The position numbers and the translations under genes were made by a program. Positions 10,139 through 57,441 of a DNA stretch of 64,000 nt are shown here, piece after piece. How positions within the stretch are numbered: the first letter of the stretch is position 1; the number at the start of each line of letters is the position of its first letter. The notes beneath the pieces were generated by a model. It did not search any database. It was not told the DNA's origin and saw nothing but the letters and a program-made list of their open reading frames with translations. Source of the DNA: an uncultured Gammaproteobacteria bacterium (GTDB lineage: Bacteria > Patescibacteriota > Patescibacteriia > UBA9934); the NCBI GenBank assembly GCA_964613815.1, contig CAZTKG010000001.1, positions 200,895 to 264,894 of the forward strand, written 5' to 3'.

Positions 10139-10221
10139 ATGTGCTCCATTATATCATAATTCTTCTCCGTCATTGCGAGCGCAGCGCGGCAATCTCAATC
10201 CAAATAACCGCCTTCTCATCT

Positions 10222-10296
10222 CCCATCTCGACCTTGTGGAGAGATCCTGGTTCTGCCCTCGATTTCTTCAGATCTCTCCACGTTGGTCGAGATGGG
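10222..10296. repeat. Family-1 palindromic repeat, copy B
   Basis: Arm cccatctcgaccttgtggagagatc, 24-nt loop, inverted arm gatctctccacgttggtcgagatggg. Confidence 0.85.
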
Positions 10297-10351
10297 ACTA
10301 TTAGCCCCTTAAATGACAAAGAAAAAATCACCCCCTGTGGGTGATTGATGT

Positions 10352-12492: not shown

Positions 12493-12567
12493 GGCCCCAT
12501 CGTCTAATGGTTAGGACGCAAGGTTCTCATCCTTGAAATCGGGGTTCGATTCCCCGTGGGGTCACCA
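12493..12567 (+). tRNA. tRNA-Glu (anticodon CUC)
   Basis: Hand-folded cloverleaf: acceptor GGCCCCA/TGGGGTC, D-arm GTCT/GGAC, anticodon stem CAAGG/CCTTG with loop TTCTCAT (U33, CTC at 34-36), T-arm GGGGT-TCGATTC-CCCCG, encoded CCA. Confidence 0.8.
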
Positions 12568-13600: not shown

Positions 13601-13929
13601 TTCGTATTCCTTTTTGGGGTTACTTGATGTGAGCGTGGTATAGCATTATTTCACCCTTTTGTCTAGCCTTTGGTGTGAAAGGGGTCAGGTCGTGTATCGT
13701 GACATTTTTGGAGCTTGCCTCATTGTGAAATGGTAGGATGAACAGCCCCCTATGCTGCGCCTGATTTTGAAAATTGTCACGATACACGACCCGACCCCAT
13801 CCACTACTCGATCATCGCCGCGATGTGCTATTACGCTGGAGCCACGGTCGCGACCCTCCGCTGAACGCCTCCGCCGCCCCATAGAGCGCCCTGCTCTGCG
13901 GGGCGTTTCTTTTTTTGACCCTGACCCTG

Positions 13930-14003
13930 CCCCATCTCGACCTTGTGGAGAGATCTTACCTCTGCGCTGTCCGAAGAGATCTCTCGGCTACGCTCGAGAT
14001 GGG
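13930..14003. repeat. Family-1 palindromic repeat, copy C
   Basis: cccatctcgaccttgtggagagatct, loop, agatctctcggctacgctcgagatggg. Confidence 0.85.
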
Positions 14004-14055
14004 AAGAGACATTTTCCAAAATTAAAACCGCAGAGCGAATCTGCGGGATGGGGGC

Positions 14056-16922: not shown

Positions 16923-17021
16923 GAGATCTCTCCACTCCCTTTGGTCGGTCGAGATGGGGGGCGGAGGGACTTGTTAATAAACACGTTCCGCCCTCTCCCA
17001 TCTCGACCTTGTGGAGAGATC
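16923..17021. repeat. Family-1 palindromic repeat, copy D (arms in tail-to-tail order)
   Basis: gagatctctccactccctttggtcggtcgagatggg...loop...ccctctcccatctcgaccttgtggagagatc. Lies immediately 3' of the GIY-YIG gene. Confidence 0.85.
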
Positions 17022-17027
17022 TTGCAG

Positions 17028-17333: not shown

Positions 17334-17414
17334 CCCCTCTCCCATCTCGACCTTGCGGAGAGATCTTGCGCCTGCCGCTATCAGATCTCTCGACTACGCT
17401 CGAGATGGGAGGGG
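17334..17414. repeat. Family-1 palindromic repeat, copy E
   Basis: cccctctcccatctcgaccttgcggagagatct, loop, agatctctcgactacgctcgagatgggagggg. Immediately 5' of the GIY-YIG gene. Confidence 0.85.
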
Positions 17415-36690: not shown

Positions 36691-36778
36691 CTCCCATCTC
36701 GACCGAGCGAAGCGAGTGGAGAGATCTCTTCGAACTCGAATAGCTGCGAGATCTCTCCACTTTGGTCGAGATGGGACA
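36691..36778. repeat. Family-1 palindromic repeat, copy G
   Basis: ctcccatctcgaccgagcgaagcgagtggagagatctct, loop, gagatctctccactttggtcgagatgggacagg. Confidence 0.85.
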
Positions 36779-36888: not shown

Positions 36889-37519
36889 ATGCCTACGCTA
36901 CCCCCACCCAATTCTGGATATCCCATGCGCCCCGAACCCTCCATTCTTCGCGCCAGCCTTGCCCTCCCGCTCTTCGGCGTCATTCTCACCGGCATCTTCC
37001 ACAAGTTCCCCGCGGACTTCAACCCGTGGATCATGTACGGCGTCTTCCTCGCCTGCATGGGGGGCGCTCATCTATGCCTTCATTCGTGACGATCGTTATA
37101 TCGTCCTGCGATTCCTGATCGAGAATGATGAGAAGGGCATCTACAGCCTCCCGTTCATGGCAGCTGTGGATCGCCTGAAGAAGCATGACCCGAAGGTGCA
37201 TGCGCTGATCCTCGGCCATGCGAATATGCAGGATGCTGTCGTGGATGGACTGAAGCACTTGCTCATGCGCACACGAGCGCATCGAGCAGATCACCTCGGC
37301 CCGACCTGCGTCGAATTCCACCAGACGGTTCTGACCCTCTGCACGCTCGCTCGTAGCATCCCGCCCTCTCGCTTCGCTGCCCTCCTCGATGACCAGAGCG
37401 GGCCATGGATGGAGCTGATGATCGACCTTCTGAACAGCTACTCTGTACAAGCCCTGCATGAGCGGCGACTTCCGCTGCTCCACTGCCTGGAGATCAAGAA
37501 TCGACTGATCCCCCGCTGA
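36889..37519 (+). pseudogene. Hypothetical membrane-anchored protein, apparently frameshifted at a G6 tract near 37053
   Basis: Frame A 36889..37089 (MPTLPPPNSGYPMRPEPSILRASLALPLFGVILTGIF...) and frame B continuing to 37519 (ALIYAFIRDDRYIVLRFLIENDEK...) join at atggggggcgc. The ORF-track 36839 start lies inside the promoter and is not credible. Confidence 0.3.
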
Positions 37520-37526
37520 GGCACTT

Positions 37527-37612
37527 GCCGAGGACCCAAGCTTAGCTTGGGCGCCTCGGCAGTCTTACTGAGATGCATTCGTGCACTCTGAGGACTTCCT
37601 TCACCCCCTTCT
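37527..37612 (+). repeat. Conserved inter-cassette junction, copy 1 (GC hairpin + AGTCTTACTG + CTGAGGAC..CTTCAC + GAGGAGA SD)
   Basis: gCCGAGGaCCCaAGCTtAGCTtGGgcGCCtCGGCAGTCTTACTG...CTGAGGACttccTTCAC...GAGGAGAactcaATG; near-identical to the 38234..38332 junction. Confidence 0.7.
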
Positions 37613-37639
37613 TCAACACTGCTCAACGAGGAGAACTCA

Positions 37640-38227
37640 ATGAGCCCCCCTACGACCATCCGCGAATACTATGACCTTCTCGGCCAGGAGCTTGATGTTT
37701 CCTGGCCTGGATGGCGCAACTTCCGCAGCGTCCATCTCCGCGGCTCCCCCATCATGGTGATGGGGTGGCTGAGCGATGATCGCACTATCCTCATGGATAG
37801 CCTCACCGCGGCGGAATCACGCCTGCTTGGAGGCGGCTTCGGGTTCAAGTACCCCGATTCGTGCAACTGCGTCGTAAGGACGCCTGATCCGCGTCCAGAC
37901 TGCGCGGCCGATGAATGGCCCGATGTATGGATCTGGTCTCAGATTCGTCACGGCGGCTTGCGGGACTCTGACCGCATCCTGGCTCGCAAGGAGCTGCTCC
38001 GTCGCAGTCCCAACGAGCCCACTCTCGGACGTGTAGCGCTCAACGACGCGTTCGCGTGGCGGCACAATTACCATGACAGGTACAACCGCGCGCTCGCGAA
38101 GATCGTTAGCGAGACGATCGGCGCCGATGCGCTCATCGACATGATCGAGCGTGACATGACCAGTGGCGAAGACCAGTGCATGCCCCTCGACTGGTCGGAG
38201 CGTACCCTCCTGCTCCTTCGGGGATAA
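37640..38227 (+). CDS. Hypothetical protein (cassette 2 of GC-rich island)
   Basis: 195-aa ORF preceded by the conserved junction and a GAGGAGA SD. No recognisable domain. Confidence 0.45.
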   Translation: MSPPTTIREYYDLLGQELDVSWPGWRNFRSVHLRGSPIMVMGWLSDDRTILMDSLTAAESRLLGGGFGFKYPDSCNCVVRTPDPRPDCAADEWPDVWIWSQIRHGGLRDSDRILARKELLRRSPNEPTLGRVALNDAFAWRHNYHDRYNRALAKIVSETIGADALIDMIERDMTSGEDQCMPLDWSERTLLLLRG

Positions 38228-38233
38228 CAACCC

Positions 38234-38320
38234 CTTCTTGCCGAGGGCCCGAGCTCAGCTCGGTGCCCTCGGCAGTCTTACTGGCGCGCGAAATCCTTCG
38301 CGCTCCTGAGGACCCCTTCA
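38234..38320 (+). repeat. Conserved inter-cassette junction, copy 2
   Basis: gCCGAGGgCCCgAGCTcAGCTcGGtGCCcTCGGCAGTCTTACTG...CTGAGGACcccTTCACtcGAGGAGActATG. Confidence 0.7.
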
Positions 38321-38332
38321 CTCGAGGAGACT

Positions 38333-38743
38333 ATGTCTCAGCGTATCCTCAACCTTTCTGGACGAGCCATCCCAGCATCACTTCGCCAAGTTGGTGTCGT
38401 GGACCCGGAAGGCGCCGTCACGCTCGGCCTCGTTCTTGAGGCAATTCGGAACGACCCGTCCAACCTGTATGATCAGCATGTGTCGCTGCTCCTTGCCGCG
38501 GCACGGCAAGCGAGCATTCGGTTCGTGTGGATCGGTATCACCCTCTTCATGCAGCAGACCGTGGATGCGCTCAGCGTCGCCGGTTTCGTCCCGGTTCGTC
38601 TCGAGTTCCTAGATGCGGGCATACGCAGGACTCTGGACGCCTCCGGTGTCGATGGTGCTCAGATGCGGCTCAACTACCGCTTCCGGCCCTTCCTCCAGAA
38701 CGATCCAGTGCCAGAGATCACCTTCGGGATGTCTCTCGGCTGA
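38333..38743 (+). CDS. Hypothetical protein (cassette 3 of GC-rich island)
   Basis: 136-aa ORF unrelated in sequence to cassette 2, same junction upstream. Confidence 0.45.
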   Translation: MSQRILNLSGRAIPASLRQVGVVDPEGAVTLGLVLEAIRNDPSNLYDQHVSLLLAAARQASIRFVWIGITLFMQQTVDALSVAGFVPVRLEFLDAGIRRTLDASGVDGAQMRLNYRFRPFLQNDPVPEITFGMSLG

Positions 38744-38756
38744 GCTCATCAGTATC

Positions 38757-38812
38757 GAGCCTCGTGATCGCAAAGACCCCGCGTCTTGCGATGCGAGGCC
38801 TTCTTTTTTCTC
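38757..38812. terminator. Bidirectional terminator between the island and the convergent permease gene
   Basis: gagcctcgtgatcgcaaagaccccgcgtcttgcgatgcgaggcc long hairpin followed by ttcttttttctc. Confidence 0.5.
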
Positions 38813-38822
38813 TTTATTTTTG

Positions 38823-39959
38823 CTATGTCACGATCATCATGATGATTCCTGTGATAAATACGAGTGCACAGGCATACATGGTCCAGCTTGGGACTTTGAA
38901 CGCACGCTTCGTGGTTGTGGCGTGTTTTTTTGCGGATAAGTATGTGGCGATGATGAGGAGACTTGCACAACCGCCGAAGACGCCGCCGACGAAGCCGACG
39001 ACTTCGATGAATTCTCGGATGTTTAGAAGGAAGAGGGCCATAGGGACGGAAATAACGACGGCCCAGCTAGTCATGTAGCGGCGTTTGTAGTCGATGGTGA
39101 GCATGTCCATGAAGGACATTCCGAGAATCAGGAAACTCGTGAAGACGGAGAAGAGGCCGATGAGGGAGCCGATGAGGAGGACCCATTCGCCGACGACGGC
39201 GCCGAGGCCGGTGATGGCGTCTTGGGTGGTTCCGGCGCCGCTTACGGCGACGATAATGCCGGTGAAAATAAGGTAGACGACGGATACGATGGCGACGCCG
39301 GTGATGATAGCTCTTGGGAGGAGGCGTTTTTGGCGGCCGAGGACTTGAGCCATTTCTGGGACAACGGCGGCTCCACCTAAGGCAAATATCACGACACCGA
39401 ATGGGGTGAACCAGTGGTCTGTGGTTATGGAGGTGAGGTTTGTGAGGTCAATGTGAGGAGTGGATCCTGTGAGGATCAGTGCCAGGAGGATGAATAATAG
39501 GGCCACAAAGATCCCCTCTAGGCGGACGATGAAGCCGAGGCCTCCGATGAGGAGGAGGCTGCAGATTGTGTAGAAGATGATTTGGTAGGTGAATACGGAG
39601 CCTCCGAGGAGCGGCGAGATGAGGGCGTGGAGGAAGCCGCCGCCGAGGATGAGGTATGCGAGAAGGGCTCCCCAGCTGCTTGCGGCGATGGTGATGAAGG
39701 CGGCCCAGGTCCAGTGTTTGCCGAGGTATTTTTTGGTGAGGCCGGCGAGGTGGTGTTTGCCGCGGGTTGTGACGATGACTTCGCTGTAGGCAGCGAGGAC
39801 GAGCATGTAGACGAGGGCGAGGGCGACGAGCCAGGTAGCGCCGATCGCGAATCCTGATTGCGAGAAAACGTAAGGGAGCCCGAAAATTCCGACGCCGATG
39901 ACGGAACCGATGAAGGGCTGGACAGCGCGCCAGAATACCCTCTTTTTTGCAGATATCAT
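38823..39959 (-). CDS. Amino-acid permease (aromatic amino acid / Aa_trans-like, 11 TM)
   Basis: 378 aa polytopic; N-terminal FWRAVQPFIGSVIGVGIFGLPYVFSQSG is typical of Trp/Tyr-permease-family transporters. Confidence 0.75.
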   Translation of the reverse strand: MISAKKRVFWRAVQPFIGSVIGVGIFGLPYVFSQSGFAIGATWLVALALVYMLVLAAYSEVIVTTRGKHHLAGLTKKYLGKHWTWAAFITIAASSWGALLAYLILGGGFLHALISPLLGGSVFTYQIIFYTICSLLLIGGLGFIVRLEGIFVALLFILLALILTGSTPHIDLTNLTSITTDHWFTPFGVVIFALGGAAVVPEMAQVLGRQKRLLPRAIITGVAIVSVVYLIFTGIIVAVSGAGTTQDAITGLGAVVGEWVLLIGSLIGLFSVFTSFLILGMSFMDMLTIDYKRRYMTSWAVVISVPMALFLLNIREFIEVVGFVGGVFGGCASLLIIATYLSAKKHATTTKRAFKVPSWTMYACALVFITGIIMMIVT

Positions 39960-39986
39960 AAGGAAATTATATCACAGGCTTCCTCT

Positions 39987-40038
39987 TCCCCATCTCGACC
40001 GAAGTGGAGAGATCTCTCGACTTCGCTCGAGATGGGAA
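39987..40038. repeat. Family-1 palindromic repeat, copy H (compact, no loop)
   Basis: ccccatctcgaccgaagtggagagatctctcgacttcgctcgagatgggaag; between the permease and dnaB. Confidence 0.85.
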
Positions 40039-43286: not shown

Positions 43287-43480
43287 AGGCGGTTTGTGGC
43301 CGAACTATAGCGTAAAACGGGGAAAAATCAAGCTTTTTTGGGGAAAACTTGGAGATAGGGGAAAATGTCCATAAAACATTGACAAAATGGGGGTTTTGTG
43401 GTATTTTGTGGCGTTGATCTTTGTCAATTTCACCCCGAATTTGCGCGGTTTCCGTGCAATTTTTCCAACCTGGAGAATCC

Positions 43481-45460
43481 ATGTCCCCCAATCCCTCATT
43501 CCTCGACCGCGCAGAAGGCGCAGCGTTCGACACCATCGGGCAGCACAAGCTGTCACACGGCGATGAGATCCTGGGCTCGCTTCTGCTCAAGCTGCACCTC
43601 CCGGGTGCACGCGGCGCAGAGCTGATGTTCCATGGCAACGACGACAACCTCCCCGAAGGCCCCGAGCATCTGCACGTCGGCATCGGCGGCGGGATGTTCG
43701 ACGAACATCGCGCGGAAGGACGGCTGCCGAATACGTGCAGTGCGGTTCTTGTCGCAGAAGCGCTCGAGATCGCGGATGCGCCCGAACTGCAGCTTGTCCT
43801 CAACGAGGCGCTGCGCGCGGACACAACTTCTGGTCAGCAGACCATGGAGCTCGCGCAGATGATCAAGACGCTGAACTCCCATGGCGATCAGGTCAAGGCG
43901 TCCGACAATCCAGACCTCCGCGTCTGGAAGATGGCGGCGCGGGCCTACCTTGCCGTGATCAACCAGCAGCGTGGCGACGAGCCGCGCGAACTCGACGTCG
44001 AGCAGATGCAGGTCCCGGAGAACTCGTGTCTCCCGGAACTCACCAAGAACAACCGAGCGAAGCAGCGGATCGATACCTTGATCCTCCCGGCGTTCTGCGA
44101 AATCCGCGCGCTCGCGCAAGCGAAGCTCCTGAAATGGTACGGATACGAGGGCTGGAACATGCCCGAGGACTCTGACCGACTGGAGATCGTTTTCGTGCGT
44201 ACCCAGCGTCAGCTGGAGCGCGAGATCCGCGCCTCGGACTATCGCTGTATCGTGATCGGTATCGAAGGAGGGCAGGTCCCTCCAACGATGACGGTCAGGC
44301 GGCTCGCCAAAGACCTCAAGGTCCGGTGGGTCAAGGAGATGCTGCGCGTGTTCCTGCGCGAGTGTCATCGGTGGGACCGCTACGGCCCCGATGGCTACGA
44401 ACCCGACGACGGCGGCGAGAGCCCCGACTACGACAGCCGGCGGTGGGTCCGCCCCCTCGAGCTCGTCAACTTGGTCAGCTGGCTCAATGGCTGGTCCAAG
44501 ATGGGTCCGGTGGAGATCTGGGACTACGTGGAAGAGGTGTTCGACGCCGTCTTCCGTGAGAGTCAGAACTTCTGGGAGGTCTGTCCCGCGCAGTTCAAGC
44601 GACGTGCCTTTGTGACGTCGTTCCCACTTCCGGAATCCTGTCGCGTTCGCATCGTGCCCGAAGTCGTCGAGAACATCCACGACGACGAAGACGAATACGA
44701 CGCGGACATCGACGGTCCGCGCGGCCTGATCGAGACGGTTTCGGCAGGCGTCAAGCTCCTTGAAGGACCCGCACCTGAGGCGCCGGAACAGCGGCTGAAG
44801 ATCTGTATCGTGTTCACCAACAACTCGGTGATGCACAAGTATGCGAGAGCGATCGAAGGCTGTCATGTGGTCATCGTGCGCAACAGCCGCCGTCAGGTTC
44901 AGCTGTTCACACATCGAGATCACAAGATGGCGGCACGGTATGCTGCAGCAGCCATCAGCCTGCTGGAGCACGTCGTCGCAGAGCAGGACCATGACCTCGA
45001 GGCGCAGTGGGCCCATATCTGTGAGATCGCTCGAACTGGACGTGGTCGCAACCTCCTCGGCGCAGCGTCCCACTGGTATGCGCATGATGTGGCCGGAAGT
45101 GTCCTCAACGGTTCCCTGACACATCCCGAGGTCCCGGCAACGAAACTCGATGATCACGAGCTCGTCGAAATGGTCCTCGCCGCTGCCGCTGCGTATGTAG
45201 GCGACTTCGCAGCCCTTCAGGACGCACAATTCGACGCTGCGTCCCGACTTGCCACGGGTCAGAAGTCCTCAACCGAGGAAGAGATCGCCACCGTGCACGA
45301 CAACGTCGCAGATCTCTTCGACTACATCAAGGGCCTTCGGCTCGTGATGGCGGATGAGGGCGACGAGGCCGTGACCGAGGACGACACCGAAGTCGATGAG
45401 GATGCGACCGAGGTCGAAGTCGACCTGCAGGCAGATTTCGACCCCACCTCCGACGAGTAG
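43481..45460 (+). CDS. Large hypothetical protein (659 aa) with acidic C-terminal tail; GC-rich, likely horizontally acquired
   Basis: Start at the ATG preceded by GGAGaatcc; ORF track begins at 43421. Weak promoter-like TTGGAC-N18-TATTTT upstream. No recognisable domain; C-terminus DEGDEAVTEDDTEVDEDATEVEVD. The antisense 558-aa ORF is judged spurious. Confidence 0.5.
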   Translation: MSPNPSFLDRAEGAAFDTIGQHKLSHGDEILGSLLLKLHLPGARGAELMFHGNDDNLPEGPEHLHVGIGGGMFDEHRAEGRLPNTCSAVLVAEALEIADAPELQLVLNEALRADTTSGQQTMELAQMIKTLNSHGDQVKASDNPDLRVWKMAARAYLAVINQQRGDEPRELDVEQMQVPENSCLPELTKNNRAKQRIDTLILPAFCEIRALAQAKLLKWYGYEGWNMPEDSDRLEIVFVRTQRQLEREIRASDYRCIVIGIEGGQVPPTMTVRRLAKDLKVRWVKEMLRVFLRECHRWDRYGPDGYEPDDGGESPDYDSRRWVRPLELVNLVSWLNGWSKMGPVEIWDYVEEVFDAVFRESQNFWEVCPAQFKRRAFVTSFPLPESCRVRIVPEVVENIHDDEDEYDADIDGPRGLIETVSAGVKLLEGPAPEAPEQRLKICIVFTNNSVMHKYARAIEGCHVVIVRNSRRQVQLFTHRDHKMAARYAAAAISLLEHVVAEQDHDLEAQWAHICEIARTGRGRNLLGAASHWYAHDVAGSVLNGSLTHPEVPATKLDDHELVEMVLAAAAAYVGDFAALQDAQFDAASRLATGQKSSTEEEIATVHDNVADLFDYIKGLRLVMADEGDEAVTEDDTEVDEDATEVEVDLQADFDPTSDE

Positions 45461-45548
45461 AAGCGTCACGCTCCTCGTCTTATCTTCCCCCCTTGGGAGC
45501 CCCAGTGGCTTCTGAGGGGGGATGTTTGTATAAAAAGAAGCCTCTTTG

Positions 45549-51541: not shown

Positions 51542-52039
51542 TCATGTGGACGAGCCCGAACGATGCATTGCGAGTTCGTGTGCGGTGATCTTGTCGTTGA
51601 TGAGACGTACATATTTTTGATCCTGACCGCTCACTGTCTCATCTATTCTTTTTATTGTCGCGTTCATGGTCGCCATATCTTGGTCTATTTTCCCCGCCCA
51701 TGTTTGAATGCATTCGTAGATCTCTTTTTTTGCCATATCGACCGTCACATAGATTTCTGCTCTGAGCTCTGTTTTGATTCTGGCCTCAGAAGCCTCTATT
51801 GCTTCAGTGATATCTCTGCCTAGCTCTGTTTTTAGCTCTGTCTTTAGCCTACATTCAGACGCAGCGATCGCATCTAATACCTCTGCCTTGAGTTCAGTCC
51901 GCGATGCCTTGATCGCGTCTAGCACTTCTGCCTTGAGTTCAGTCCGCGATGCCTTGATCGCGTCTAATACCTCTACCTTGAGGCCGGCCCGTGATGCACC
52001 GATTGCACCTAAAATTTCTAACTTGTCGCTTTGTGTCAT
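51542..52039 (-). CDS. Hypothetical coiled-coil protein with 15-aa tandem repeats (EVLDAIKASRTELKA)
   Basis: 165 aa; DNA shows about 3 copies of a 45-bp tandem repeat at roughly 51838-51975. Confidence 0.45.
   Translation of the reverse strand: MTQSDKLEILGAIGASRAGLKVEVLDAIKASRTELKAEVLDAIKASRTELKAEVLDAIAASECRLKTELKTELGRDITEAIEASEARIKTELRAEIYVTVDMAKKEIYECIQTWAGKIDQDMATMNATIKRIDETVSGQDQKYVRLINDKITAHELAMHRSGSST
51838..51975. repeat. 45-bp tandem repeat (about 3 copies) inside the coiled-coil gene
   Basis: ctgccttgagttcagtccgcgatgccttgatcgcgtctagcactt repeated with 2-3 substitutions. Confidence 0.7.
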
Positions 52040-52191: not shown

Positions 52192-53478
<1,287 letters not shown>

Positions 53479-54078
53479 CTAGCCAGCGAGAAGGCGGCGG
53501 ATCTCGGCGAGGACGGAGGCCGTCTTGTGTTCGAAGCCGCCGTCGCAGGTGACCCGGATTGCTCCTGCGCCCTTGTACACGTCCCATGTTCGCTCGTTCA
53601 ATGCCAGAGCGTACTCTGGCGTTTTCTCGAAGCGGTGTTCGTTGCCATCTGTTCGATTCCAGTCTTCAGGATAGGTATCGAGGAAGATGATCGCATCGTA
53701 CTCCGCAAGGATCGCCTCACGGTCGTACGGCCGCCTGATGAGTCCCTCGATGTAGCCAGGAGGAACGTACGCCTCCCCATCGAGCGGGCTGCGGTCAAGG
53801 ACGATCATCCTGATGCCGCCTTGAATTTCGGCGAGGCGCCTGTGAGCTGGGAGTATTTGCTCTCCGACGATAAATACCGCTGTCTGGAAGGCGTCGAGCA
53901 ATGCCTGGTCTGGCGGATTGCCGTAGCCCGGGAATCCGCCGTCGAGAAGGATGCCGGCTGCCTCGGGAGCGATGAGGACCTGACTGCCGAATTCTTCCCT
54001 GATCATGCGGAGAATGGTCGATTTTCCGCTGCGTGGGCCGCCTGTGATAAGGACGATGATGTATGAAGTGACTGTCAC
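53479..54078 (-). CDS. P-loop NTPase / predicted kinase (AAA_28-like)
   Basis: 199 aa; Walker A ITGGPRSGKST near the N-terminus, size and layout of small nucleoside/nucleotide-kinase-like ATPases. Confidence 0.55.
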   Translation of the reverse strand: MTVTSYIIVLITGGPRSGKSTILRMIREEFGSQVLIAPEAAGILLDGGFPGYGNPPDQALLDAFQTAVFIVGEQILPAHRRLAEIQGGIRMIVLDRSPLDGEAYVPPGYIEGLIRRPYDREAILAEYDAIIFLDTYPEDWNRTDGNEHRFEKTPEYALALNERTWDVYKGAGAIRVTCDGGFEHKTASVLAEIRRLLAG

Positions 54079-54161
54079 TTTACCTCCAAAGAACGGAGGG
54101 ATGGTACCGATTATTGATATTTCTGTAAAGAAAAATCCGCGAACGAGTCGCGGGTGAGCTG

Positions 54162-54623
54162 CTACGCGGGAGCGTATCCAGCAGTGTCAAAGCAGGCGGG
54201 AACGATGCTGAGCTCGAGGCTGGGGTCCTCGGCGAGAAGGTCGCCGACAGGCCGATCTGTCTGACTGTCGATGAACGGAGCGGCGATTTCGACTTCGCCG
54301 TCCGCATCGCGCTCGTTCTGACCGTAGTCGAAGGTGATCTGCCGATCCTTGTGAATCCACCTGATCGCGACCAGATTGCGCCCATCGACGCATACGGTAG
54401 GCCTTCGACCGTTGTGGTTGGTGAAGCGACCGAAGTCGTCTTCTACGTGGATCGGCCCTTTGTCGTCGCAGCCGATCTGGATGGATGTACGAGTCCGCTG
54501 ACGCGTAGCTGACCCATTCATCGCATGGACGATCTCGCCCACGCGGAAGGACCTCGCTGCGAACAGCGCCATCCCATCTCCAGTCTCGACTGCGAAAACG
54601 TTTCCTTCTGCATCTTTGATCAC
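54162..54623 (-). CDS. SET-domain protein (putative protein-lysine methyltransferase)
   Basis: 153 aa; GRFTNHNGRRPT (NHSC-like) and ITFDYG (ELxFDY-like) motifs characteristic of SET domains. GC-rich codon usage. Confidence 0.55.
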   Translation of the reverse strand: MIKDAEGNVFAVETGDGMALFAARSFRVGEIVHAMNGSATRQRTRTSIQIGCDDKGPIHVEDDFGRFTNHNGRRPTVCVDGRNLVAIRWIHKDRQITFDYGQNERDADGEVEIAAPFIDSQTDRPVGDLLAEDPSLELSIVPACFDTAGYAPA

Positions 54624-54715
54624 ATGCCCTCCTTGGCAAAGAACTGTGGGAGAATATCAGCTCCTGCGATTCTTGTCAATCCTTTTCTGACAAGCGGGTT
54701 CGTGGTACGAATAAG

Positions 54716-55303
54716 ATGTTCATTCCGGAGGCTTTCATGCCAATCTTTCTCTTCTTCGTCTTCCTTGGGCTCGTGTTCTACCTTGGCCTACTTGGCTACC
54801 ATGCCATTGATGAGCAACATAAGGTCGGCCTCCCTGTCTCGCTTTGCATCGTGCTTTTTTCTGCGACCAGCATTGAAATCTCTGGGCTCTCTACTCAGAG
54901 CCGCGTCGTCGCTATCTTGCTCTTCCTGCTTTTGCTTTGCTGGTTTGGCTGGTCAGCCCTTGCTTCGCTCTGTACGCGCAGCGGTGCGCAAGAAGGCTTT
55001 TTCGAGATTCTTCTTGTCGGAATCTGTGCGATGCAAATCCTCGTCAATGACCTTTCTTGGCAGCATCTTGCGATGTCGATTCTTACCTTCTCAACGCAGG
55101 TTATCGAAGCGCGTAATATTCGCCGTGATGGGCGTGATGGGTACAAGATGTTCTGGATCGTTTTGTGTTTTATCCATCTTCTCTTTGCCATGCATCTCCT
55201 GCCGCAATATCCGCAGATTGGCTGGCTCTATGCGTTCTCGATTGGCCTTGCCGGCGTTCTTGGTCCGCTCATTATTGCCCTCAGCACTCCTCGTAGACCT
55301 TAA
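54716..55303 (+). CDS. Hypothetical membrane protein
   Basis: 195 aa, 5-6 hydrophobic helices. Confidence 0.45.
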   Translation: MFIPEAFMPIFLFFVFLGLVFYLGLLGYHAIDEQHKVGLPVSLCIVLFSATSIEISGLSTQSRVVAILLFLLLLCWFGWSALASLCTRSGAQEGFFEILLVGICAMQILVNDLSWQHLAMSILTFSTQVIEARNIRRDGRDGYKMFWIVLCFIHLLFAMHLLPQYPQIGWLYAFSIGLAGVLGPLIIALSTPRRP

Positions 55304-55374
55304 CTGCACAGCCATACCTGATGCGGTTTTTTTATATGCAAAAACCGAGCGTGTGCTCGGTTTTTGATGACTCT

Positions 55375-57339
55375 CTATGCTGAGAGCGGATCGTTTCCTG
55401 TGAGGATCTCCGTGTAATCGTCGTACACATCCCCGTCTGTGTCTTCGTTGTTTGGATCAGTTCCGTACCGTGCCTCTTGGCCGTTCGTGAGACCGTCGCC
55501 ATCGTTGTCGGCGGTCCCACTATCTGTTAGTTCCCAGCGGTTTTTGAGGAGCGTTGAATCTACATCCATGTCAGTGATATCCGTGATCGCGTTCCCTGAG
55601 TAGAACTTACTGAAGTAGGTTGGCTGTACGTCGATGACGTATGCCGCCCAGTCCTCGCCCCAGAGTGCAATCGCGATCTCTTCTGTGCTTACCCATCGCA
55701 TTCGCGGCTTGAAGTCGTCTGAGCTCTGCTCTAATGCGTAGACCTTTGGATCACTTTGAACCTTGATGAGTAGTGACCCCGCCTTTGGAACCATGAGACC
55801 TTCTAGAGTTAGCGCTGAGAGCGTTGCATCTGTGACTTCTTGCACTTCGCTGAATGAGTCTGCCCATGAGAAGTAGCTGTTTTCGTCCATGAATACGCGC
55901 CGTCCGCAGTTCTCTGTGATGTAGTAGACGGATGGGAAATTTGTGCTCTTTACGTATGCTCCGACTGATACTTCTGTAATCTCTTCTTCTTCGCCGGTGA
56001 GTGGGGATGTTCCAGTTCCACTTGGCATTTCGCAGGCTACTGTCGTTGTATCTTCGTCGGTGGTCGTCGTTGAGGTTGATCCGCCTCCGCCGCCTCCTCC
56101 GCCGCCTCCTCCGCCTCCGCTTGAGGTTGTGCCGCTATCTGTTGAAGGAGTTGATGCCGCCTGGAAGGTATCCGCTGATACGTCATCATCTTCGTCAATC
56201 GTGAGATCTGCCGCGTCTGTTGTTTTGATTTCGTAAGTTCCGTCAACTCCAGCGGTTGCTGGGTTTATTATTCCGTCGATCGTGCAAGTTTCTGCCGCAG
56301 CTGACTCGTTTGTTCCCCCAGATCGCGTGATTGTAACTACCTGGCCAGATACCGCTGTTGCGAAGTCTCCATCTACTGTTGAACATGTCGCGTCACTTGC
56401 ACCGCTTACATCGAATACACTTGAGTAGGTTACAACGATTTTCCCGTCTGATGGGATTCCTGTCACCGTCGTGAAGCTGACCGTGTTTTGCTGTGTTTGA
56501 CTCACGATGAGTGTCGCAGGCTGAACGTTTGTACTGGCGAGCGTGCCGATCGTTCTCGTTACCGCAAAGTCGGATAAGGCCGTTGTCGTGAATGAACATG
56601 CGCTGCTCGCGACTGTGCAATTTGAGCCGAGGTCGGTCCATGAACCCTCAGGTCCTCTGTTATAAATATCGAGCGACAAGCCATCATAGAATGCGTCTGT
56701 AACCGCCAGGCTGATTGTCACTGCCGTGTCCGATGATGTATCCGTGCCTTCGTGCCCGAAGTTTACATCCCCTAGAGGGACAAGCGTTGATGAGAGGGCC
56801 CCAGTCGATGCGCTGCCACTTGCTTCAAAACTCGTCCAATCTATGTTTGATGCTGCGGAAAATACCGATCCAGTTGGCACCAGCACCGTATCCGTCCCTG
56901 CCGTTGCCTGAAATGCGAAGTCAAATGTCATGGTTCCTGCCGCTGTGTGATCCGAGGTATTGAATCGTACAACACCTGATCGGTAAAGCTCATCAACGTC
57001 TGCCACTACGACTTCGAACCGCTCGTCGTCAGAGTCCCACGAAAGCCCGCCGCTGTTCCCTATGTCGTACCCTCGACCATACCCGTAGGCGAATGTGTCG
57101 AGATCGTCTCCACCGATTCGGCGACCAGCTGTGTCTCCACTGTCCCATCCGTAGCCTGATCCATACCCGTACCCATACCCGTAACCGAATGACGCGATGT
57201 CGTCGCCGGTCTGCCTGGCGAATTGCGCGTACATAGATGGCACGAATATGAATCCGACGATGAAAAGTATAAATGCAGCAAATGCGATTGCTGCTACTTT
57301 TTCTTCTCTCTGAAGAAAGCCCCTTTTACCCTCTCTCAT
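55375..57339 (-). CDS. Cell-surface protein with GYGYG repeats, a poly-Gly tract and C-terminal DxDxDG calcium-binding repeats
   Basis: Start at internal ATG 57339 (MREGKRG...); ORF track starts at 57408. N-terminal TM anchor, GYGYGYGSGYGW, (G)14 linker, C-terminal DNDGDGLTNGQE...DTDGDVYDD thrombospondin-type-3/dockerin-like repeats. Confidence 0.6.
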   Translation of the reverse strand: MREGKRGFLQREEKVAAIAFAAFILFIVGFIFVPSMYAQFARQTGDDIASFGYGYGYGYGSGYGWDSGDTAGRRIGGDDLDTFAYGYGRGYDIGNSGGLSWDSDDERFEVVVADVDELYRSGVVRFNTSDHTAAGTMTFDFAFQATAGTDTVLVPTGSVFSAASNIDWTSFEASGSASTGALSSTLVPLGDVNFGHEGTDTSSDTAVTISLAVTDAFYDGLSLDIYNRGPEGSWTDLGSNCTVASSACSFTTTALSDFAVTRTIGTLASTNVQPATLIVSQTQQNTVSFTTVTGIPSDGKIVVTYSSVFDVSGASDATCSTVDGDFATAVSGQVVTITRSGGTNESAAAETCTIDGIINPATAGVDGTYEIKTTDAADLTIDEDDDVSADTFQAASTPSTDSGTTSSGGGGGGGGGGGGGSTSTTTTDEDTTTVACEMPSGTGTSPLTGEEEEITEVSVGAYVKSTNFPSVYYITENCGRRVFMDENSYFSWADSFSEVQEVTDATLSALTLEGLMVPKAGSLLIKVQSDPKVYALEQSSDDFKPRMRWVSTEEIAIALWGEDWAAYVIDVQPTYFSKFYSGNAITDITDMDVDSTLLKNRWELTDSGTADNDGDGLTNGQEARYGTDPNNEDTDGDVYDDYTEILTGNDPLSA

Positions 57340-57441
57340 AATAAAATATTGTCTGTTTGATTGAAGTATACATGAGGGGCTCCTGATAGCCGCGGCGATT
57401 ATCCACACGGACGATCACGAGATGTATTAAGGTGTAGGCGT

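Follow-up and report, generated by a model that had tools for sequence, protein, structure and literature searches.

A Divergent Small SET-Domain Protein in a Lineage-Specific Insertion Next to tgt in a Candidatus Uhrbacteria Genome

Introduction

Small stand-alone SET proteins of bacteria and viruses (PF00856), such as those of Microscilla marina and Aquicella lusitana, have a SET core without SET-I and are named in databases as "SET domain-containing protein(-lysine N-methyltransferase)." Here, we describe a protein of this size class, 153 amino acids (aa) long and hereafter called the SET protein, encoded in a 64,000-nucleotide stretch of DNA from an uncultured bacterium (GenBank assembly GCA_964613815.1, contig CAZTKG010000001.1, positions 200,895 to 264,894; the whole stretch is referred to as the window, and coordinates are those of the window). 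The organism is a member of Candidatus Uhrbacteria in the candidate phyla radiation (CPR; Patescibacteria); its tgt gene is 57–76% identical to tgt of many Candidatus Uhrbacteria/Patescibacteria metagenome-assembled genomes (MAGs). An earlier note, made from the sequence of the window, had proposed a horizontally acquired SET-domain gene paired with a small Walker A ATPase- or kinase-like gene. Both open reading frames (ORFs) lie where it had placed them:

54162..54623, minus strand: predicted mini-SET methyltransferase gene, 153 aa, GTG start, AGGAGG 6 nucleotides (nt) upstream
53479..54078, minus strand: gene for an AAA_28-type, kinase-like P-loop protein, 199 aa, GTG start, GGAGG upstream

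The SET core spans residues ∼9–127 and is followed by an acidic tail of ∼25 aa (residues 128–153) that is modeled with low confidence. We consider it fairly probable, judging from sequence, that this divergent mini-SET is a horizontally acquired, stand-alone methyltransferase dependent on S-adenosylmethionine (SAM), independent of its kinase-like neighbor, and with protein lysine as its most likely substrate. Small SET enzymes form a widespread family, to which the SET protein adds a member and not a new kind of system.

Relative to the small stand-alone SET proteins, the SET protein has the same size class and core and shares the segments ..TRTSIxIG.., ..NH(S)xxP.., ..ITFDYxxNE.., and ..PF... 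It differs in being at most 45% identical to them, in three extra loop insertions, and in its acidic tail, and it lacks the post-SET cysteine cluster present in some of them. A lineage-specific SET insert in a Candidatus Uhrbacteria genome is first seen here.

A second point of comparison is a SET-fold enzyme of Burkholderia thailandensis, the methionine S-methyltransferase BurB (PDB 9L4T/9L4V), which converts methionine to S-methylmethionine and so starts the synthesis of dimethylsulfoniopropionate (DMSP) (PMC12542666). Like the SET protein, BurB is a compact SET domain without SET-I. The two share a C-terminal ..DY...E.....F.. segment, and H93 (the histidine of the NH dyad) and Y124 (the FDY-type tyrosine) of BurB are conserved in the SET protein. 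Structures superpose at 1.8–2.7 Å root-mean-square deviation (rmsd) and a template modeling score of ∼0.55, at 22–24% identity. None of the BurB-specific residues, Leu92 before His93, His72, His138, and the CxC pair (Cys137/139), is found in the SET protein, which has N69, T46, and S120 and no cysteine pair. The SET protein also carries a 6-aa insertion where the main chain of BurB V130–M132 holds the methionine substrate (PMC12542666).

Eukaryotic histone lysine methyltransferases (MLL1/KMT2A, NSD, and SETD8) and chlorovirus vSET (PDB 3KMA) have the same fold, and they share the NH dyad and the catalytic-site tyrosine of FDY with the SET protein. Unlike these enzymes, to which it is ∼17–22% identical, the SET protein has no SET-I, no pre-SET or post-SET zinc clusters, and no partner domains. 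The organism has no histones.

Results and Discussion

The 153-aa Protein Has a SET Fold

Taken by itself, the SET protein matches Pfam SET (PF00856) with 18.8 bits (E = 0.0023; gathering cut-off 22.4 bits), and the match is confined to the model's C-terminal half. NCBIfam, PHROGs, and PADLOC gave no match, none was found by tblastn against phage genomes or in single-protein scans for relatives in viral and metagenome contigs, and a word-indexed protein search returned only the same gene from another metagenome. An exhaustive phmmer search of 1.84 billion representatives yielded 139 matches with E < 1e-3, almost all of them to proteins of 100–170 aa. The best nonself match was at 3e-13, and the nearest relatives are 43–45% identical. 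Sixty homologs drawn from these matches were aligned with the SET protein to give a family alignment of 61 sequences.

Evidence at the level of the family is strong. All 60 aligned homologs match Pfam SET, the best at 1.1e-13, and 61 of 61 alignment members do so at E ≤ 0.01 when the SET protein (E = 0.0023) is counted. A leave-one-out family profile scored the SET protein at 110.8 bits, with each of 2,000 shuffles at or below 6.8 bits, and the family profile matched 144 solved SET chains in the PDB. Membership is therefore reached transitively, through homologs and the leave-one-out profile. The AlphaFold2 model built from the family alignment is of high confidence (predicted local distance difference test [pLDDT] of 89.1, predicted template modeling score of 0.82, and core pLDDT of 92–98). 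In a Foldseek search of the PDB with this model, the best 50 matches were all SET or PR domains; MLL1 ranked first (1.1e-6), BurB superposed at an rmsd of 1.8 Å over 102 columns, and vSET was matched too.

The 153-aa protein is a genuine SET fold. The SET assignment in the earlier note is upheld by the family profile, by the structural matches, and by retention of the catalytic and SAM-binding positions; a SET-profile search with the lone sequence remains sub-threshold, and it is the family-level and structural evidence that is positive. The same note had called bacterial SET proteins uncommon. With 656 relatives found by the family profile, small SET proteins of bacteria and viruses are better described as sporadic than as rare, and SET genes were known from >500 bacterial genomes by 2014 (PMC3980110).

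Catalytic and SAM-Binding Positions Are Conserved

Four columns are invariant in the 61 sequences (N69, H70, Y100, and F117), and all four are kept in the SET protein, as are the near-invariant columns G37, H59, P75, A86, F98, E104, and P116. N69–H70 is the Asn-His dyad of the (R)FxNHS motif, which takes part in SAM binding. It opens the segment N69-H70-N-G-R-R-P75 (NHNGRRP), one residue longer than the canonical NHSxxP. Y100 is the active-site tyrosine of the ELxFDY motif and stands in F98-D99-Y100-G101, with F98 invariant or near-invariant. The post-SET Pro-Phe is kept as P116–F117. The NHxxxP- and FDYG-like motifs noticed earlier are thus real and fall on invariant family columns, and an alignment check of the catalytic Tyr, Asn, and His positions found none lost.

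Three loop insertions set the SET protein apart: 4 aa before H59, 1 aa after NH, and 6 aa (DADGEV) between E104 and P116. In a profile alignment, the last of these aligns with the V130–M132 segment of BurB, and because it falls at a BurB-like substrate-binding stretch, specificity or activity of the SET protein may be altered.

The SET Gene Lies in an ∼2-kb Insertion

In the ORF list of the window, the SET ORF, the P-loop ORF, and tgt stand in tandem, in this order, on the minus strand. The earlier note was right that the first two share a strand, and it had their order reversed; the SET gene is 5′ of the ATPase gene and not downstream of it. Three ORFs that overlap these two in other frames (54187..54639, 54080..54385, and 53527..54066) were taken for GC-rich artefacts because homologs exist for the SET and AAA_28 frames only. 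The other features that define the locus and its edges are as follows:

52192..53322, minus strand: tgt (tRNA-guanine transglycosylase), conserved flank; Pfam TGT 3.6e-138, NCBIfam Tgt 3.9e-135
∼53331–53339, minus strand: −10 box of tgt's own, TGATACAAT, 8 nt ahead of the start codon (ATG); the insertion's right edge
54716..55303, plus strand: orf195 (ORF and gene calls), predicted multi-pass membrane protein, 195 aa, divergent from the SET gene
55339..55366, no strand assigned: bidirectional terminator hairpin between the TSP3-repeat gene and orf195, −17.9 kcal/mol, z = −7.0; left edge of the insertion
55375..57408, minus strand: TSP3-repeat surface protein gene, 677 aa, Pfam TSP3_bac, conserved flank

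A 92-nt spacer separates the divergent SET and orf195 genes, and the TSP3-repeat gene converges on orf195. The only Pfam match of orf195 is a weak one to Yip1, under the cut-off (E = 0.0024).

The order of genes around this locus is conserved. In tblastn searches of the window proteins against related loci, ∼35 relatives keep the order tgt, a variable gene, orf123, and a ClpB-like gene, and in none of these are the SET protein, the AAA_28 protein, or orf195 found within 8 kb. In six relatives (loci L004, L006, L008, L009, L010, and L017), a TSP3-like gene ends 10–150 nt before tgt, and in two others (L003 and L007), the genes directly before it encode large surface proteins. In the spacer of the six, a terminator hairpin comes straight after the TSP3-like gene, followed by a −10 box and, 7–9 nt further on, the ATG of tgt. 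The window shows this terminator behind its own TSP3-repeat gene and this −10/ATG layout in front of tgt. Since the flanks are syntenic, the block is absent from relatives, and the boundary signals are intact, the ∼2-kb block (∼53340–55340) is a lineage-specific insertion between the TSP3 terminator and the tgt promoter. The horizontal acquisition proposed in the earlier note is supported by the absence of the SET gene from the syntenic locus of ∼35 relatives and by a surface-protein gene that abuts tgt in at least six.

Three genes make up the block: a stand-alone mini-SET gene, which has a promoter-like site and a Shine-Dalgarno sequence of its own and a weak terminator-like hairpin; an AAA_28 nucleoside/nucleotide-kinase-like gene; and, on the other strand, an orphan membrane-protein gene. 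It is 99.95–100% identical in contigs of ENA ERZ23498945, ENA ERZ23498677, and JGI 3300007765. No ORF in the block encodes an integrase or transposase, no direct repeat flanks it, and the only tRNA gene of the window, at 12493, does not mark it. Searches of the block against PHROG and PADLOC gave nothing beyond the P-loop, and phage collections gave no match. A mobile element, whether integrative island, transposon, or prophage, was rejected as the nature of the insert, there being no integrase or transposase, tRNA target, direct repeats, or phage or defense genes; only a palindromic repeat stands at one edge.

Composition was also compared. GC contents of the SET (0.595) and ATPase (0.593) genes are 1.5 standard deviations (sd) above the average of 60 window ORFs (0.527 ± 0.045). 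GC at third codon positions (GC3) is 0.695 and 0.70, respectively (+1.4 sd); higher GC3 is seen in seven further ORFs of the window, transporters among them. The patch is therefore richer in GC than its neighbors, as had been noted; the difference is modest and not unique in the window. Though inside the block, orf195 has a host-like GC content of 0.509. Because the SET and ATPase genes have the same GC and GC3, they were probably acquired together.

The Neighboring Kinase-Like Gene Was Probably Cotransferred

The 199-aa protein bears out the small Walker A ATPase- or kinase-like gene of the earlier note. It matches Pfam AAA_28 (PF13521) over residues 9–177 (E = 1.8e-12, 48.2 bits; cut-off 27 bits) and has a Walker A motif GGPRSGKST and a Walker B-like MIVLD95 in a Walker B region of the DR type. 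Searches of NCBIfam and the PDB gave generic P-loop matches, phage searches gave none, a plasmid search gave two at 27% identity, and a literature search on PF13521 found nothing. One homolog only, 39% identical, is closer than the level of Pfam; the P-loop and an NEHRFE motif are kept in it.

AAA_28 is best known from NadR, in its ribosylnicotinamide kinase domain. No NCBIfam NadR model was matched at E ≤ 0.1 and no PDB NadR chain at E ≤ 10, and a NadR-type ribosylnicotinamide kinase was rejected, the fold search giving generic thymidylate and adenylate kinases. Neither NCBIfam nor the PDB gave a specific match to uridine kinase or dephospho-CoA kinase. The AlphaFold2 model, built on an alignment of two sequences, is of low confidence (pLDDT 59.5) and weakly resembles thymidylate and adenylate kinases in the fold search (E ∼1e-3); with a model of this quality, these matches show a nucleotide-kinase-like fold and no more. 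JGI and ENA gene calls start the gene at an internal ATG (175 aa; L084/L085 10001–10528), which drops Walker A. Loss of the P-loop in sister strains was rejected as an explanation, the DNA being 100% identical with only the choice of start codon differing. The 199-aa start at the upstream GTG is supported by the GGAGG ribosome-binding site (RBS) and by the alignment with the homolog.

Three signals lie around the two genes:

54651..54679, minus strand: candidate sigma-70-like promoter of the SET gene, inside the 92-nt spacer toward orf195, TTGACA-17-TATTCT plus an extended −10 TG, 10/12 in a consensus scan
54137..54153, minus strand: terminator-like hairpin and T-run, 9 nt past the SET stop codon, found by a scan
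54101..54129, minus strand: weaker promoter-like site before the ATPase gene, TTTACA-17-TACCAT, 9/12 in a consensus scan

The promoter- and terminator-like sites are consensus matches only, and the hairpin is weak (−9.9 kcal/mol, z = −1.7; 13 of 200 shuffles fold as well).

Gene neighborhoods of SET homologs do not support the meaningful pair that the earlier note had implied. An AAA_28 gene was found in zero of nine such neighborhoods, a small sample that includes a giant-virus-like contig, a phage-like marine contig, Aquicella, a Bacteroidetes MAG, a short contig, a CPR-like contig with type IV secretion system (T4SS) pilins, and two unassigned contigs (P0006 and P0011) on which most ORFs have no Pfam match. 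No neighbor is common to all nine, and the contig of the sole ATPase homolog has no SET gene. Given these nine neighborhoods, the separating hairpin, and the promoter-like site of the SET gene's own, a functional pair is unsupported. The pair probably reflects cotransfer only, and the kinase-like protein probably works independently of the SET protein. A functional link to tgt or queuosine was likewise rejected as unsupported because tgt keeps the private promoter layout of relatives without the insert.

The homolog on one of the unassigned contigs (P0011, at L091 4944–5315; JGI 3300007512 Ga0105016_1000221) is 38–42% identical to the SET protein. Its contig is 101 kb in size with 60% GC, which matches the GC of the inserted SET and ATPase genes, and the sample series is numbered next to the JGI series that contains the organism of the window. 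The homolog adjoins an ORF of >3592 aa without Pfam matches.

Proposed Methylation of Protein Lysine and Its Alternatives

With every clade-invariant residue kept, we infer an active SAM-dependent methyltransferase; catalytic activity and class of substrate are both predicted from sequence. SAM would bind between the N-terminal Gly-rich strand (G15–G17), N69–H70, and the post-SET P116–F117, and the nucleophile of the substrate would enter through a channel lined by Y100. The methylated target would most likely be a protein lysine, in proteins of the cell itself or in those of a partner cell. Phenylalanine at the F-D-Y position is the state of the Phe/Tyr switch that permits multiple methylation, for which the Phe of F98-D-Y100 would be suited. 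The sequence leans toward lysine in that the Asn-His dyad is kept in the SET protein, whereas the small-molecule enzyme BurB has Leu-His (PMC12542666). A literature search on SET domains in the CPR found nothing relevant.

Several points weigh against lysine methylation by a horizontally acquired SET enzyme. The lone protein scores under the Pfam gathering score, and phmmer of it against PDB sequences gave no match at E ≤ 10. We know of no biochemically characterized member of this mini-SET clade, and the assignment to protein lysine therefore leans on the prior from other, characterized SET enzymes. Among solved structures, BurB, which S-methylates methionine, is the wider family's closest full-length relative. 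Lineage-specific loop insertions, especially that between E104 and P116, may change specificity or activity. Matching GC and adjacency leave room for a link between SET and ATPase that a sample of nine neighborhoods may have missed. Lastly, the insert is not marked by an integrase, a tRNA, or direct repeats at its flanks.

The alternative that survives best, though in our judgment an unlikely one, is that the mini-SET is a BurB-like small-molecule methyltransferase that, with the AAA_28 kinase, forms a coacquired two-enzyme cassette for modification of a metabolite, nucleoside, or cofactor in a metabolically reduced marine CPR cell. BurB is the best full-length match of the 61-sequence profile (4.3e-15, profile positions 6–121) and also gives the tightest structural fit (rmsd of 1.8 Å over 102 columns), but at 58.9 bits versus 145–165 bits for true family members it is an outgroup, and under a profile of the closest 13 relatives it only ties with MLL1 (SET domain of MLL1, the best PDB match, 5.4e-9; BurB, 6.9e-9). 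Because BurB binds its substrate through main-chain atoms (PMC12542666), there is no side-chain signature that could exclude BurB-like chemistry; the residues specific to BurB are nonetheless missing. The equal GC (0.59) and GC3 (0.70) of the two genes and the small-molecule substrates of AAA_28 and kinase-fold proteins are consistent with a cassette, but adjacency of SET and AAA_28 recurs in none of the nine other neighborhoods, and no DMSP- or bur-type pathway genes are nearby, the neighbors being tgt, the surface protein, glycosyltransferases, and the ClpB-like protein. Membership in the BurB-type methionine S-methyltransferases themselves was rejected on the absent residues, the 22–24% identity, and the score (58.9 vs. 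>145 bits).

By analogy to known effectors, the SET protein could instead be delivered by an episymbiotic CPR cell into a bacterial or archaeal host, where it would methylate nucleoid, ribosomal, or other proteins. Horizontal gain in a lineage with a symbiotic lifestyle fits this scenario, and so does the position of a similar homolog (P0010) beside T4SS-pilin genes on the CPR-like contig. There is also precedent in characterized bacterial SET effectors (PMC3980110, PMC10653858); those of Legionella and Chlamydia act on eukaryotic histones. The insert, however, has no secretion genes, and the N-terminus (MIKDAEGNVF...), inspected by eye with no predictor run, shows no signal peptide or recognizable secretion signal. 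The family, moreover, spans free-living bacteria, phages, and giant viruses in unrelated gene contexts, and we regard delivery into a host as improbable. That the SET gene is instead a decaying or noncatalytic remnant of a transferred gene, as its sub-threshold Pfam score, three loop insertions, replacements at positions that are otherwise common (NHN-G for NHS, KDRQ for xGDE, and G101 for N), and lack of relatives closer than 45% identity could suggest, is in our judgment a poor prospect against an intact ORF preceded by a promoter-like site and a good RBS, retention of all invariant and near-invariant family positions, a core pLDDT of 92–98, and the same or nearly the same sequence in contigs from several samples.

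Other Features of the Locus

A palindromic repeat lies beside the inserted genes:

53351..53436, no strand assigned: palindromic intergenic repeat ("family-1") between the ATPase stop codon and the tgt promoter; its termini are TCCCATCTCGA and TCGAGATGGGA

This is the repeat that the earlier note had placed upstream of tgt, and a palindromic element is indeed present at ∼53351–53436. Members of the family are intergenic elements of ∼70–85 nt, and the window has 12 occurrences of their terminal 11-mer, with 0.06 expected. Copies are located at about 10220–10297, 13929–14004, 16995–17022, 17339–17410, ∼32509, 36692–36776, ∼40027, and 53351–53436, the last of which folds at −50.9 kcal/mol (z = −3.5). 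The 40 related Uhrbacteria loci lack the repeat, which may serve as a terminator or insulator or may be an element like repetitive extragenic palindromes (REP) or miniature inverted-repeat transposable elements (MITE).

In this clade (window 53320–53340, minus strand; L008, L009, L010, and L017), TACAAT or TATACT lies 7–9 nt before the tgt ATG and there is no Shine-Dalgarno sequence. The −10-like box and the missing Shine-Dalgarno sequence suggest a leaderless tgt mRNA. Between tgt and orf123 is orf165 (51542–52039, minus strand), with four tandem repeats of 45 nt (15 aa, coiled-coil-like) at 51821–52025. It has no homolog at this position in relatives and is therefore another variable gene of the same neighborhood. 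Thirteen consecutive glycines and a stretch rich in Ser/Thr occur in the TSP3-repeat protein, encoded at ∼56000–56200. In L007, three tandem ORFs of 681–713 aa lie upstream of tgt; the first only was matched to the TSP3 protein, and we take the three to be paralogous surface-protein genes. Other GC-rich patches of the window (37000–40000 and 43400–45500; 0.57–0.62) contain an amino-acid permease gene and ORFs without Pfam matches (e.g., 43421–45460, 679 aa), and could be further acquired or fast-evolving genes.

Significance

For the window alone, the result is mostly a gain in annotation, with no new mechanism. There is a slim chance that a CPR episymbiont uses the mini-SET on the proteins of another prokaryote, which if true would make it a prokaryote-on-prokaryote "epigenetic" effector, or that SET and the coacquired kinase form a two-step cassette for a methylated metabolite, one that the reduced cell could not otherwise produce. 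The locus itself is a clean, datable gene gain in a CPR bacterium, an insert of ∼2 kb with the regulatory signals of the flanking genes still in place. The SET protein is a very divergent addition to a poorly studied clade of 100–170-aa SET proteins from bacteria, phages, and giant viruses. Among solved structures, those nearest to the clade fall into two groups, histone lysine methyltransferases and the small-molecule S-methyltransferase BurB.

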